A program made the translations under genes and the position numbers. Shown in pieces: positions 39,425 through 50,417 of a stretch of DNA of 62,404 bases; within the stretch, counting starts at the first letter, position 1; every line of letters starts with the position of its first letter. Source of the stretch: Endomicrobiales bacterium. Its GTDB lineage: Bacteria > Elusimicrobiota > Endomicrobiia > Endomicrobiales > JALOBY01. Location: assembly GCA_963796955.1 (NCBI GenBank), contig CAWCNJ010000010.1, positions 1 to 62,404 on the forward strand, read 5' to 3'. Below the pieces are notes generated by a model. It did no database searches. It saw only the letters and a list, made by a program, of their open reading frames with translations, and was not told the origin of the DNA.

Positions 39425-40555
39425 ATGAGCGCCGGCTTTGCTCAAACACAATCGGCACGCCAGGGTTTCGGCTTTCAGACAAGGCTGGCGGGCCTGCTTG
39501 AGCTGCCCGAGAAAGAATATGCGGGCTTGATAGCCGAGATCGAGGCGGACCCGCTTTTTATAAAGCTCAAATATGCCGAGAACAAGCCGGAGCGCGCCAT
39601 TCGCTCGCGGCGGCTTCAGCAGGCCGACCTTTCGCACCGCTTCCTGGAGCTTAAAGAGGACCTGGCGGTGCACGCCGGCGGCGAGGGTGGCGCGGAGGTT
39701 GAAAAACTTCTTGCCGATAAAGATAAACTTGTGGCCGTTATACGGAAGCTCGGAGAAGACGATTTTAAAAGATATTTCATTTACAACGAAGATTCGTTGT
39801 CGCTTTCCGAAATAGCGGCGGAATGCGAACTTGAGCCTGAGAACGTACAAGAGATATTATCCCTGCTTAACGCCGTCGATGTTTACAGCGAATTCTTTAC
39901 CCCATCCGCCGAACCCATGTCCTCCGGAGTACACCATTATAAGATCGCCACGCTTGCGAGAACCGGTAAAGGCATTACCATCCAATTCAATTCCGCCCAT
40001 TGGGCACGCGGTCTCTACGAGGTGGATCACGAGAAGATCGGGAAAATGGCCGCTGCGGGCCGGATAACCAAAGAAGAGGGTAAGCGGCTTAAGAAACTGC
40101 TGCAAAAGATAGAATTCGTGAACTTGCGCAAATCGCTGATGCACAATATCATCTCAATAATGATCAAAAAGCAAAATAACTATTTCCGCTGCAAACAGGA
40201 GAGCGGTCTGGTGCCTTTTATGCAGATAGAGCTGGCGAAAGAATTGGGCGTTCATCCGAGCATTATATCCCGGGCGACAACCGGGCGTTCCATCGAAACC
40301 CCGTGGGGCGAGGAAAAGCCTCTCAAATTTTTCTTTATAGCCGCTGCGTCCAGACAGAGAGATGATGTTTTGCGCCATATCAGGAATATTATCAGAGAAG
40401 AAAAATTCAAGCTGCAAAAAGATTCAGTCGCTAAACCCTCGGCCGATAAAGACATCGCAAAGACACTGCTGGACAGGTACGGTGTCAAGATATCCCAACG
40501 CACCGTCGCAAAATACCGCACATCAATGAAGATCCCCGGCGCCTTCCACCGCTAA
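39425..40555 (+). CDS. Short divergent sigma54 (RpoN-like) factor
   Basis: Q-rich start plus LLEL (region I-like), ELAKELGVHPSIISRA..TPWG..LKFFF HTH, RpoN box SQRTVAKYR; 376 aa. Confidence 0.85.
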   Translation: MSAGFAQTQSARQGFGFQTRLAGLLELPEKEYAGLIAEIEADPLFIKLKYAENKPERAIRSRRLQQADLSHRFLELKEDLAVHAGGEGGAEVEKLLADKDKLVAVIRKLGEDDFKRYFIYNEDSLSLSEIAAECELEPENVQEILSLLNAVDVYSEFFTPSAEPMSSGVHHYKIATLARTGKGITIQFNSAHWARGLYEVDHEKIGKMAAAGRITKEEGKRLKKLLQKIEFVNLRKSLMHNIISIMIKKQNNYFRCKQESGLVPFMQIELAKELGVHPSIISRATTGRSIETPWGEEKPLKFFFIAAASRQRDDVLRHIRNIIREEKFKLQKDSVAKPSADKDIAKTLLDRYGVKISQRTVAKYRTSMKIPGAFHR

Positions 40556-40573
40556 ACCCCAGAGCATCAAAAA

Positions 40574-40618
40574 CTACATTTTCGTAACTTCCTATCAGCT
40601 AAGCTACATTTTTGTAGC
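40574..40618. promoter_or_regulatory. Paired palindromic activator sites (UAS) 1
   Basis: CTACATTTTCGTAA and GCTACATTTTTGTAGC, 30 nt apart. Confidence 0.7.
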
Positions 40619-40659
40619 CGGCTACCCGGTTTTAGTGAACGGCCCTGCATGCCGAAACT

Positions 40660-40688
40660 TTGCACGCCGATTGCAGGAAAGAAGGGTG
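40660..40688 (+). promoter_or_regulatory. Non-canonical -24/-12 promoter 1
   Basis: TTGCAC-gccga-TTGCAGGA-aaga-AGGGTG. Confidence 0.75.
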
Positions 40689-40784
40689 AAGCCAGCTCAC
40701 TAATCGGCGTAGGACACGGAAGTCCGTTCGGGCAATGCCGCCTGAAAATGAGCGAAAATGCAGTTAAACTACCTGGAGGATGTT

Positions 40785-41489
40785 ATGAAGAAGATATTTT
40801 GGTTGCCGTTGTTAGCCGCAGTGTTGCAGATGGGAACGCTCGCGTACGCCACACCGTCAACCCAGATATGGAACCCCTCAACGGACATTCAGGGGCTTAA
40901 AACGTGGCATCTGGGAATAGACAATTATTTCTCGGTGTCGGACAATGACGCCAAGGTTGTGAACGTACCGACAGACACCAATCTGACCTATGGTGTATGC
41001 AAGAATGTTGAGGTCGGTTTTGACTATTTCGGCGCTTCGTATTACCCGGTACAGTTTAATGGAAAATACGGACTGCCGGAAGGTGATGCGATGCCGGCAG
41101 TTGCGGTCGGTGTTCAGAATGCCGGAACAAAATCGGATGTCAATAACTACGATATTTTCTATGCGGTTATCGCCAAGAACTTTAAACCGATAGGCAGAAT
41201 ATCAGTCGGGTATTACGACGGCAACGATAAGCTGTTGATCGACGAGAATGCAAAGGCCGCCAACACTGGAGTGATCGTTAGCTGGGACAAGCAGCTCAAC
41301 GATAAGTGGTGGGCGTCTATAGACTGTGCATCCGGACAGAGCTGGTACGGTGAAACATCTGCCGGTTTCTCATACGCGTTTGCCCCCAACACCAGCGTTA
41401 TATTCGGTTATGTCATACCGAACAATCCCTACGCCATCGGCGGCTATGTGAATCACATGGTCACTACGCAGCTTGATATTAATTTCTAA
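40785..41489 (+). CDS. Putative outer-membrane beta-barrel (porin-like), copy 2
   Basis: Close paralog of 35347-36054 (shared TPSTQIWNPSTDIQGLKTWHLGIDNYFSVSDND); SD GGAGG. Confidence 0.7.
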   Translation: MKKIFWLPLLAAVLQMGTLAYATPSTQIWNPSTDIQGLKTWHLGIDNYFSVSDNDAKVVNVPTDTNLTYGVCKNVEVGFDYFGASYYPVQFNGKYGLPEGDAMPAVAVGVQNAGTKSDVNNYDIFYAVIAKNFKPIGRISVGYYDGNDKLLIDENAKAANTGVIVSWDKQLNDKWWASIDCASGQSWYGETSAGFSYAFAPNTSVIFGYVIPNNPYAIGGYVNHMVTTQLDINF

Positions 41490-41499
41490 GGAGAGTGTT

Positions 41500-48312: not shown

Positions 48313-49389
48313 ATGCGATCTGATACGATGTTGAGAAGGCTTGTTTTTGCCGTGCTGATGGGAGTTTCAGCACGCCCGGCATGGGCGGTAACGGATGTGG
48401 ATAGTTTGGTAGACTTGTTGTCGCAAAAGGGTACTATTTCTAAGGAAGAAGCTGCAAGTCTGCGCACCAGGGATGTGGGCTTGTTCTACGGAAAAAGCAT
48501 TTCGGTGACCGGGTATAATCAGGTGTTGTTTAAACATGATGACACAATGGGAACGTTCGATGGTTTTTCGATACGCCGGGCGCGTTTGGAAGTAAAGGGC
48601 GACCTTTCTGAACAGATGTTTTATGATTTCCAGGCTGACTTTGCGGGTGCATCGGCAAGACTGTTGGATTCCAGTATCGGTTATAGGTTTGACCCGTGCC
48701 TCAAGTTTACGCTTGGGCAGTTCAAGTTGCCGTTCAGCCAGGAAAACTTATCTTCTGATGTTAACCCAGATACCATAAACCGTTCTCAGGTGGTGGAAGC
48801 CCTTGTCGCCAGGACGAAGGATGTTATCGGCAACCAGAACGGTCGCGATACCGGTTTTCAGGCGTCCGGCCAATATAGCATTGTTGAATACGCCGCCGGA
48901 GTATTCAACGGGGCCGGCATTGATACTGCCGATACTAACGAGCAGAAAGATTATGTTGAAAGGCTGGTGGTTCATCCCATTAAAGAGCTGTCAGTGGGCG
49001 GATCGTTCTACCAGGGAAGTTATTTTGCTTCGGCCGCTAACACTGCGGCAGACCGCAAACGAGCAGGTGTGGAATTTGATTATGAAATAGGCCCATTATC
49101 AGTTAAAGGAGAATATCTCAACGGCAGGGACGCTTTGATATCAAAACAAGGGTGGTATGGTTATGCCGGGTACTTTTTTCTTCCAAAGGTATTGCAGGCC
49201 GTCGTTAAATACGATACCTTCGACCCCAATATGAGCGCTTCCAACGATGATACCAGCGTCTGCACCTACGGTGTTAACTGGCATCTGGTTAAGTGGGCGC
49301 TGGTGCAGGTTAACTACGAACAAAAGAGGGAAAAGCCAACTGAAATACAGAACGATGTCTTGTCCGGCCAGTTCATGTTTGCATTTTAA
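48313..49389 (+). CDS. OprO/OprP-like anion-selective porin
   Basis: Signal peptide, FSIRRARL, GQFKLPFSQE, GRDTG, C-terminal Phe; directly upstream of modA. Confidence 0.75.
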   Translation: MRSDTMLRRLVFAVLMGVSARPAWAVTDVDSLVDLLSQKGTISKEEAASLRTRDVGLFYGKSISVTGYNQVLFKHDDTMGTFDGFSIRRARLEVKGDLSEQMFYDFQADFAGASARLLDSSIGYRFDPCLKFTLGQFKLPFSQENLSSDVNPDTINRSQVVEALVARTKDVIGNQNGRDTGFQASGQYSIVEYAAGVFNGAGIDTADTNEQKDYVERLVVHPIKELSVGGSFYQGSYFASAANTAADRKRAGVEFDYEIGPLSVKGEYLNGRDALISKQGWYGYAGYFFLPKVLQAVVKYDTFDPNMSASNDDTSVCTYGVNWHLVKWALVQVNYEQKREKPTEIQNDVLSGQFMFAF

Positions 49390-49401
49390 AGGAGAGAATT
49401 C

Positions 49402-50175
49402 ATGAAGAAATTATTGCGCAGCATCAGTGTGTCTTTGTTGTTGGCCGCTACAGTAGCCGGTTTGCTGCGGGCGGCAGAGCCTGAAACATTAAAAATAGCG
49501 GCAGCCGCGAATTTAAGCGGTGTTATGGCCGGGCTCAAGGATTCTTTCATCGCTTCTCACCCGGATGTTAAGATAGATGTTATTATGGGTTCAAGCGGCA
49601 AGATAGCGATGCAGGTAATAAGCGGCGCGCCATTCGATGTTTTCATGTCGGCGGATATGGAAACCCCGCAGAAGCTCAAAGAGCAGGGGTACGCCGTCAA
49701 TGACCCGGCGATCTATGCCTTTGGCACGCTCGTAATGTTTACCACAAAGGATATTGACCTAAAGCAAGGGGTGTCTGTGGTAACCTCGCCGGCGGTAGAA
49801 AAAATTTCCATCGCCGACCCGATCCTGGCGCCGTATGGAAAAGCGGCGGTTGAAGCCATGAAAAAACTTGGCGTGATCGATGCCGCAAAGAAAAAGTTCG
49901 TCACCGCGACCAATATTTCCGAGGTAATAACCCAAACGGTTAGTGGCGCTGACCTTGGCTTTACCGCGCTGTCTCTTATGTATGCCGACGGTATCAAACA
50001 ATACAATGTTGAGGGGAAGAACTGGGTAGCAGTTGACAGCACCCTCTATTCCCCGATCCGCCAGGCGATCATCGTCTTAAAGCACGGCAAGCACAAACCG
50101 GAAGCAAAAGCCTTCTATAATTTCATCCTTTCAAAACAGGCGGGGGAGATATTCAAGAAGTACGGGTACAAATAA
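49402..50175 (+). CDS. modA: Molybdate ABC transporter substrate-binding protein
   Basis: IAAAANL, GSSGK, GAPFDVFMSA, APYGKAA, YSPIRQ. Confidence 0.93.
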   Translation: MKKLLRSISVSLLLAATVAGLLRAAEPETLKIAAAANLSGVMAGLKDSFIASHPDVKIDVIMGSSGKIAMQVISGAPFDVFMSADMETPQKLKEQGYAVNDPAIYAFGTLVMFTTKDIDLKQGVSVVTSPAVEKISIADPILAPYGKAAVEAMKKLGVIDAAKKKFVTATNISEVITQTVSGADLGFTALSLMYADGIKQYNVEGKNWVAVDSTLYSPIRQAIIVLKHGKHKPEAKAFYNFILSKQAGEIFKKYGYK

Positions 50176-50184
50176 ACAAGTAAA

Positions 50185-50229
50185 CTACATTTAGGTACTA
50201 ATCCACACTTCAATACTACTGAAAAGTAG
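50185..50229. promoter_or_regulatory. Paired palindromic activator sites (UAS) 3
   Basis: CTACATTTAGGTAC and CTACTGAAAAGTAG, 31 nt apart. Confidence 0.65.
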
Positions 50230-50388
50230 CATAGATCCCCCGATAGCCGATCATCGCGCCGGACTGCTTCGTGTTCAGAGCCTCCGAACTCGCCCATACT
50301 AAAATGACGGGCTCAAACATGCGGAGATCTCTTCACCCGAACAGTCCGGCGTGCTGATCTCATGCTCAGTATAACGTTGCGCTCTACT

Positions 50389-50417
50389 TTGCACACCATT
50401 TGCAGGAGAGTAGGTTG
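50389..50417 (+). promoter_or_regulatory. Non-canonical -24/-12 promoter 3 (nifH)
   Basis: TTGCAC-accat-TTGCAGGA-gagt-AGGTTG. Confidence 0.75.

Follow-up and report, generated by a model that had tools for sequence, protein, structure and literature searches.

The DNA analysed here is a 62,404-nucleotide stretch (the window), which is contig C10 (CAWCNJ010000010.1) of assembly GCA_963796955.1; the source names of homologues point to Endomicrobiales, Elusimicrobiota. On its forward strand lies the gene of a compact, 376-residue sigma-54 protein (39425–40555), whose ATG at 39425 stands 2 nt beyond the TGA (39420–39422) of a NifA-like open reading frame (ORF). As the original prediction had it, the translation contains an RpoN box, SQRTVAKYR (in the context ISQRTVAKYR), and a helix-turn-helix (HTH), HPSIISR (in the context VHPSIISRA). 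When the box is aligned to ARRTVAKYR of solved structures, the CAA codon at 40496–40498, which encodes Gln358, falls on E. coli R455, the first of the two box arginines, while the second, R456, is kept as Arg359. Nine independently assembled members of the same clade (clade A, below) have Q at this position, so Q358 is not a read error and the CAA reading, rather than CGA, is upheld. The sequences suggest that this protein, the sole sigma-54 found in the assembly, probably lost the first arginine of its box while its three putative promoters lost the first G of the -24 element, and that the same happened across its clade.

The three putative promoters all lie on the forward strand. P1 (40660–40688) reads TTGCAC-N5-TTGCAGGA-N4-AGGGTG and was located by motif scan and weight matrix, with orthologous sites in the related loci L125/L129, L156, L100 and L099. 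The other two came from the motif scan: P2 (48258–48286), TAGCAC-N5-TTGCAGGA-N4-AGGGTG, stands before a porin_O_P gene, and P3 (50389–50417), TTGCAC-N5-TTGCAGGA-N4-AGGTTG, before nifH, where the nifH sites of the related genomes G016 and G013 are alike. All three retain the GC, the second G and the exact -24/-12 spacing, lack the first G, and extend after TTGC as AGGA-N4-AGG(G/T)TG. The pattern TWGCAC-N5-TTGC occurs three times in the window, always on the forward strand, against 0.29 expected, and none of 100 shuffles reached three. The original prediction had placed such sites at 40660, 48258 and 50389 before three nitrogen operons and had seen no exact TGGCAC-N5-TTGC; we likewise found none within the window.

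These sites are also the only ones of their kind in the assembly (2,103,342 bases, 11 contigs, 81.46% complete): GCAC-N5-TTGCAGGA occurs at the three window sites and nowhere else. A 34-nt weight matrix from nine clade A sites scored them at 45.9, 40.8 and 34.5 bits, whereas no other site exceeded 23.1 bits, the score of one inside an ORF; the scan is partly circular, three of the nine training sites being the window's own. The sole exact TGGCAC-N5-TTGC of the assembly (C4:8430) lies in coding sequence with the in-frame reading ...AFNQMARYLHDL..., which we take to be HAMP-like. Sigma54_DBD and the gene's own family profile each match one gene in the assembly, 39425–40555, and Sigma54_CBD matches nothing anywhere in it. 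Sigma54_activat gave two strong matches, both NifA-like genes of the window; the other four were weak (E 6e-8 or worse). The assembly thus shows a single sigma-54 gene, the genes of two activators and three promoters, all inside about 16 kb, with the promoters within 10 kb. The original prediction had proposed a private second sigma factor, orthogonal to canonical RpoN. Since the gene is the sole sigma-54 found by these three models, and only two activators accompany it, that idea was not borne out; a second canonical rpoN, looked for in the same 81%-complete assembly, was not found, and the claim of orthogonality is not applicable to the genome in its present assembly.

Fold comparison assigns the protein to sigma-54 along its whole length. 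Sigma54_DBD (PF04552) was the sole Pfam match (E 1.5e-24, 86.9 bits against a cut-off of 22.8), and the family profile matches solved sigma-54 chains (5ui5, E 2.7e-26), the box being aligned to ARRTVAKYR of 5ui5 and of the E. coli chains. An AlphaFold2 model (26 sequences) reached a predicted local distance difference test score of 80.3 and a predicted template modelling score of 0.72, and Foldseek returned 28 matches to it at E ≤ 0.001 with sigma-54 chains on top (best E 1.4e-10). VIA-align placed model residues 11–376 on residues 12–473 of E. coli sigma-54 (Z 12.7, root-mean-square deviation 7.0, 235 aligned). Because the profile alignment and these fold matches agree, the modelled protein is a complete though compact sigma-54, from region I through the RpoN domain. 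The residues of the HTH that read the -12 element (E. coli H377, S379 and R383) are all present as H, S and R in HPSIISR.

A search of 1.84 billion representative sequences with the family profile found 323 proteins at E ≤ 1e-30, and the best 150 of the 323 are nearly all 330–420 residues long. They come from Endomicrobiales, other Elusimicrobiota and many metagenome-assembled genomes of Dehalococcoidia/Chloroflexota. In Endomicrobiales, members that keep both arginines (RR-type) have an NtrC-type activator gene next in five of the eight loci examined, and in clade A nifA precedes the sigma gene; a sigma-plus-activator cassette therefore seems typical, and from these neighbourhoods the family seems to consist of sigma-54 proteins of 350–400 residues that are typically encoded beside their own enhancer-binding protein. 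Within a limited paper collection, no description turned up of a family of compact sigma-54 proteins or of a sigma-54 variant from Elusimicrobia, and both the family and the sigma-activator cassettes of Elusimicrobiota and Dehalococcoidia appear undescribed so far. A separate group of relatives, G010–G040 (family f10, 26 genomes), contains the compact sigma-54 in none of its genomes and a distant NifH homologue in three (47–49% identity); nif-like control there would therefore run without this sigma factor.

The first box residue varies within the family. Over 174 members it is R in 132, P in 14, Q in nine, V and L in four each, T in three, G in two and K, S, C and I in one each, with a gap in two; the R455 position is non-Arg in 40 of 172 aligned sequences. 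Clade A, made up of 21 Endomicrobiales sequences that are 40–78% identical to the window protein, has Q (9), P (10), K (1) or G (1) and never Arg, and the five more distant sequences of the same 26-sequence alignment retain both arginines. Given Q, P, K or G in clade A and many other residues family-wide, these alignments indicate that R455 is not invariant in the compact family and that Q is not special. Clade A is monophyletic (FastTree support 0.975; Shimodaira–Hasegawa-like approximate likelihood ratio test, SH-aLRT, 95), and so is clade C, which also lacks the first Arg (A-T/V/L-RTVAKYR; support 1.0, SH-aLRT 99). Two further Arg-less sequences cluster with one Arg-Arg sequence (SH-aLRT 99). 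The backbone of the tree did not resolve; its well-supported branches require at least two independent changes of the residue. One clade A sequence (P0169, metagenomic, on three contigs) has the box ASNTIAKYR, in which both arginines, that at the R456 position included, appear to be replaced.

Sites linked to clade A sigma genes resemble those of the window. Directly downstream of the sigma gene stands TTGCAC-N5-TTGCAGGA in the window, in L125/L129 (SQR box) and in L156 (APR), GTGCAC-N5-TTGCAGGA in L100 of G016 (APR) and TCGCAT-N5-TTGCAGGA in L099 of G006 (SGR), so placed across loci whose sigma proteins are 46–79% identical to P0001. The nifH promoters of G016 and G013 (NifH identity to the window's protein, 91% and 88%) read TTGCAC-N5-TTGC. 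Over nine clade A sites from six assemblies, the window's three included, the first-G position is T in seven, A in one, C in one and never G. GCA and TTGC are invariant in all nine, and the base after GCA is C or T. The AGGKTG element, which had been proposed as an extra element near the start site, is partly conserved in these sites (A 8, G 7, G 6, G/T 9, T 8, G 9) but absent in L099 and L100. A scan of G005, G006, G013 and G016 for GCAC-N5-TTGCAGG gave six matches, of which two were accepted, G013:C39 at nifH and G016:C199, which lies downstream of the sigma gene. The other four were dropped from the promoter count: G016:C67 (CGGCAC) and G005:C64 (CCGCAC) lie within long ORFs, G006:C16 (AGGCAC) just within an ORF of uncertain start, and G016:C135 (AAGCAC) at a contig end. 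Two of these four have GG. Across 17 related genomes, the numbers of TGGCAC-N5-TTGC and TWGCAC-N5-TTGC per genome did not stand out from background and so gave no information, and the P2 porin operon orthologues in G006 and G013 have no comparable promoter.

RR-type relatives have the GG element near their sigma genes. In Endomicrobiales, 8 of 11 RR-type loci contain one or more intergenic TGGCA-N6-TTGC sites no further than about 7 kb away (ten sites in all; none in the other three loci); five intergenic matches there are non-GG, two of them reverse reads of palindromic GG sites. Of 24 other RR loci, mostly from Dehalococcoidia, 14 have TTGGCA-N6-TTGC some kilobases beyond the sigma gene, and many of the remaining ten are too short to cover that stretch. 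Both types meet on one contig of G006, where an SRR sigma gene is followed about 110 bp on by CTGGCAT-N5-TTGC before a response-regulator gene, and an SGR sigma gene by TCGCAT-N5-TTGCAGGA; G016 repeats this contrast between RR-type and clade A sites. G013 also contains a clade A and an RR-type sigma gene, and no TGGCA promoter was found at its RR-type locus. Because Arg-less clade A has non-G sites and its Arg-Arg relatives have TGGCA sites, the comparison supports a joint change of sigma factor and promoters at clade level. Co-variation of protein and promoter, as originally predicted, therefore holds for the clade (21 of 21 sequences Arg-less, nine sites never G), but not as a strict rule (see G083 below), and the expected pairing of Q or R with the first base stands only in the form that the Arg-less clade is non-G and TGGCA occurs near the sigma genes of Arg-Arg relatives; with Q, P, K or G at the position, the pairing is not Q-specific.

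A AGGGTGAA-like sequence lies exactly 8 nt after TTGC both in the TTGGCA-type promoters of Dehalococcoidia (L101–L122; for example TTGC-N8-AGGGTGAAAGGAGG) and in the promoters of clade A. Compact sigma-54 promoters may thus have a start-site element in common, although in Dehalococcoidia the sequence may just belong to a short leader that includes the ribosome-binding site.

Taken by itself, the shared motif could be read otherwise, as a promoter of sigma-70 or extracytoplasmic function type (TTGCAC as -35, N17, AGGKTG as -10) or as a tandem TTGCA-N6-TTGCA operator, given that the TTGCAC-N17-AGGGTG spacing is sigma-70-like and TTGCA recurs as a direct repeat at 11 bp. We consider this very unlikely. 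What is invariant across clade A is xGCA(C/T)-N5-TTGCAGGA, L099 and L100 no longer have the AGGKTG part, and the first repeat itself varies (TCGCAT, GTGCAC, TAGCAC). Moreover, the sites adjoin a sigma-54 gene, GAFTGA activators and palindromic upstream sites, and RR-type relatives have TGGCA-N6-TTGC at the same place relative to their sigma genes.

Published work on the box bears on which base each arginine reads. In excerpts from PMC9770992, R455 and R456 are termed invariant and recognise CTGGC, and H377, S379 and R383 read the -12 GC. According to the portions of the other reports at hand, alanine at 455 or 456 abolishes -24 binding (PMC7175178), a double substitution at 455/456 has no activity in vivo (PMC2715252), and engineered R456 variants shift the preference at the second G only, the authors noting that 456 is always Arg in nature (PMC12096077); the passages of this last paper hold nothing comparable on residue 455. 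As the engineered R456 variants alter only the second-G preference, we infer by elimination, within the limits of these excerpts, that R455 reads the first G, which fits clade A. In clade A the sigma factor no longer has the equivalent of R455 but retains R456 together with the -12 readers H, S and R. Correspondingly, its promoters have T, or in a few cases A or C, in place of the first G, while the second G, the GC and the precise distance between the elements are kept; an extended -12 element (TTGCAGGA) and the start-site-proximal AGGKTG are further features. Most likely, loss of the Arg contact would first have relaxed the constraint on the first G, and with few promoters to re-tune the -24 element would then have shifted to TTGCAC. 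The gene, the fold, the motif, its uniqueness in the assembly and the co-occurrence at clade level are direct results; that the sigma factor uses P1–P3, that transcription starts where their spacing implies and that residue and base are causally linked are all points we infer from these comparisons.

Several observations weigh against this reading. Region I, which interacts with the activator (PF00309), and the core-binding region (PF04963) have no Pfam match in the protein at E ≤ 0.001, and its score on the rpoN equivalog TIGR02395 (94.1 bits) is below the trusted cut-off of 277.35. The association at clade level represents very few independent evolutionary events, related genomes being non-independent. 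Most directly, the Elusimicrobiota genome G083 (98% complete) has one sigma-54 with an Arg-less box (IATRTVAKYR; HTH LHSSTISRA), one activator and canonical GG sites: TTGGCAA-N5-TTGC ten bases past the activator stop codon, and CTTGGCAT-N5-TTGCA about 2 kb from the sigma gene before a response-regulator gene. The genome-wide density of TTGGCA-type patterns in G083 is not above control (22 against 34); at only about one per 100 kb, these two placements are unlikely to be due to chance. In G174, which has a clade C and an RR-type sigma gene, TTGGCAC-N5-TTGCA lies 1.3 kb upstream of the clade C gene. TGGCA-N6-TTGC is enriched in G244 (31 against 6 in the control) and G385 (61 against 7), an enrichment that is assignable to neither sigma factor, since both genomes have a clade C and an RR-type one; clade C promoters could not be defined from six sigma-gene loci alone. 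As the Arg-less sigma gene of G083 neighbours canonical TTGGCA sites, an Arg-less box can occur together with GG promoters, and Arg loss looks permissive and not sufficient for loss of the G. As an observation apart, the G083 locus (C1; L201, L217) constitutes a near-minimal sigma-54 system in another Elusimicrobiota genome.

The variability of the residue also counts against a specific contact from glutamine to T or A. T dominates the promoters of Q-type and P-type sigma factors alike, which argues, as far as sequence comparison goes, for a lost contact and not a Q-specific one. Hence it is unlikely that Gln358 makes a new base-specific contact with T/A and renders sigma and promoters orthogonal to canonical RpoN in both directions, as first proposed. 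Residue and base are indeed altered together in this genome, single-residue engineered changes in the same box yield orthogonal pairs in the excerpts of PMC12096077, and G006, G013 and G016 have clade A and RR-type sigma factors side by side, with TGGCA near the RR-type gene in G006 and G016 though not in G013. No second sigma-54 was found in this assembly, however; proline, found at the position along with Q, K and G, is incapable of such a contact; the published orthogonal pairs seen in those excerpts all derive from R456 and none from R455; and the Arg-less box of G083 neighbours GG promoters.

It is possible, though on the sequence evidence doubtful, that Elusimicrobiota maintain two insulated sigma-54 channels, an R455-less nitrogen/nif paralogue acting at T/A-GCAC-N5-TTGCAGGA and an Arg-Arg paralogue acting at TGGCA-N6-TTGC, which would not cross-fire, each compact paralogue having its own activator. 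If true, these channels would be a natural counterpart of engineered orthogonal sigma-54 factors, and the window's genome would keep the nitrogen channel only.

A last point against our reading concerns the assembly. Because it is 81% complete, a second sigma-54 is conceivable and could sit in the missing 19%; a canonical sigma-54 there might serve the sites despite the missing G, leaving the compact protein another role or none. Some known promoters tolerate a -24 element with a single G, which would allow this. We nevertheless regard it as extremely improbable: a full-length sigma-54 (465 residues) occurs in only one of the 16 nearest genomes (G002), the compact gene is intact, conserved (mean column identity 62%) and syntenic with nifA, and the promoter downstream of it is conserved across the divergent loci described above. 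A compact sole sigma-54 that lost its first box arginine, with promoters that lost the first G, probably remains the best account. The system itself is a genuine and well-defined natural variant of sigma-54 control, and its compact family appears not to have been described before.

The surrounding genes, all on the forward strand, suggest how this regulon would be wired. The sigma gene closes a gene string with an ammonium transporter gene, amtB (36068–37465; Ammonium_transp, E 6.1e-125), a PII gene (37486–37827; P-II, E 1.8e-25) and the gene of NifA-like enhancer-binding protein 1 (37833–39422; Sigma54_activat, E 1.2e-71, GAF_2, HTH_8), which contains GAFTGA. A candidate sigma-70-like promoter, TTGACA-N17-TATGCT (35136–35164), was read by eye ahead of the string, and a promoter of this type would probably drive all four genes. 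Downstream of P1 follow, at 40758–48120, genes for a 243-residue secreted protein, a permease-PII fusion, PII, a 550-residue protein of unknown function, NifA-like activator 2 (45829–47388) and a 23S_rRNA_IVP protein (Pfam). Both activator paralogues combine GAF, sigma-54 AAA+ and HTH_8 domains (Pfam); we name them NifA-like because their TIGR01817 (nifA) scores, 512.5 and 521.6 bits for the first and second, are slightly below the trusted cut-off of 528.85. By Pfam, P2 precedes the phosphate-type porin gene (porin_O_P, ATG at 48313) and a solute-binding protein gene (49402–50175), and P3 precedes nifH (ATG at 50456), two nifI1/nifI2-like PII genes, nifD and nifK (50456–54834; Fer4_NifH, E 8.3e-124; P-II twice; Oxidored_nitro twice).

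Candidate activator sites take the form of a CTAC-N6-GTA(G) palindrome, of which the window holds nine against 3.04 expected (none of 100 shuffles reached nine). One forward-strand pair, 30 bp apart (40574 and 40604; 40574–40617), precedes P1, and another, 31 bp apart (50185 and 50216; 50185–50229), lies about 170–200 bp upstream of P3; P2 has none, and related loci have similar palindromes downstream of the sigma gene. The compact sigma factor with NifA-like 1 bound at these pairs would open P1 and P3, P1 would supply NifA-like 2, and P2 may rely on that second activator. The regulon would comprise the nitrogen-uptake operon with the second nifA-like gene, the porin/binding-protein operon and nifH-I1-I2-D-K. 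In G006 (100% complete), clade A sigma, a P1-type promoter and its leader are present with no NifH match at E ≤ 1e-60, so the regulon of the clade has nitrogen uptake at its core and does not depend strictly on the presence of nif.

Compared with canonical RpoN and NifA at nif promoters such as Klebsiella nifH, the system shares the fold as a whole (region I through RpoN domain), the -24/-12 spacing, TTGC at -12, a GAFTGA activator with upstream palindromes, and nitrogen/nif targets. It differs in a sigma factor 100 residues shorter than that of E. coli, on which the Pfam models of the activator-interacting and core-binding domains are silent, with Q at R455; in a -24 element of TTGCAC or TAGCAC in place of TGGCAC; in being the sole sigma-54, with three promoters only; and in a candidate upstream site of CTAC-N6-GTAG, where canonical NifA uses TGT-N10-ACA. 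Rhodobacter capsulatus NifR4, a short sigma-54 serving nitrogen fixation genes, is likewise encoded inside a nif cluster, but has a normal RpoN box and GG promoters. The closest natural precedent, according to the parts of PMC11999139 at hand, is RpoN1 with NifA of Cereibacter (Rhodobacter) sphaeroides, a nif sigma-54 paired with its cognate NifA in a lineage with several sigma-activator pairs; there, specificity is ascribed to the -11 position and activator matching, with normal GG and RpoN box, whereas here the -24 element and the box have changed and no other paralogue was found in the assembly. The engineered R456H, R456Y and R456L variants (PMC12096077, excerpts) likewise alter one box residue and one GG base together under a NifA activator, but at the second Arg and second G, not the first Arg and first G as in the natural case.

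Promoter recognition by sigma-54 has been treated as fixed, with the -24 GG read by an invariant Arg pair, and an engineering study of 2025 raises the question of why it has not diversified in nature. Clade A promoters without the first G, and a sister clade C apparently with it, offer a natural experiment on what each arginine reads. The clade A sigma factor and promoters are candidate parts for orthogonal nif expression, and the roughly 16-kb regulon of one sigma factor, two activators and three promoters is a minimal sigma-54 system that could be transferred as one unit.

Downstream of P1, a conserved leader of about 35 nt (40720–40755, GGACAyGGAAGTCCrTTCrGGCAAwG..GCC) with two small hairpins is common to three loci (the window, L125 at about 1630–1665 and L099 at about 7345–7385), with sigma proteins 54–79% identical to that of the window; L156 has no such leader. 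No compensatory changes were seen among the loci and no Rfam match at E ≤ 1 over 40640–40800, and at gathering scores Rfam matched nothing in the whole window. The leader may act as a regulatory RNA for the nitrogen-uptake operon; a glutamine riboswitch was considered and dropped as a guess without support, given the empty Rfam result over that interval. The interval from the sigma-70-like promoter to the first ORF of the amtB operon contains a GC-rich hairpin with a T run behind it (…gaccccgggaaggcgtttttt; 35170–35225). It resembles a terminator in the leader and has no Rfam match at E ≤ 1 over 35040–35280. The permease-PII fusion behind P1 is a 632-residue protein (41473–43371) with an AA_permease domain and a C-terminal P-II domain (residues 518–626; Pfam). 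A free-standing PII gene is next to it, and the window encodes six PII domains, the fusion included.

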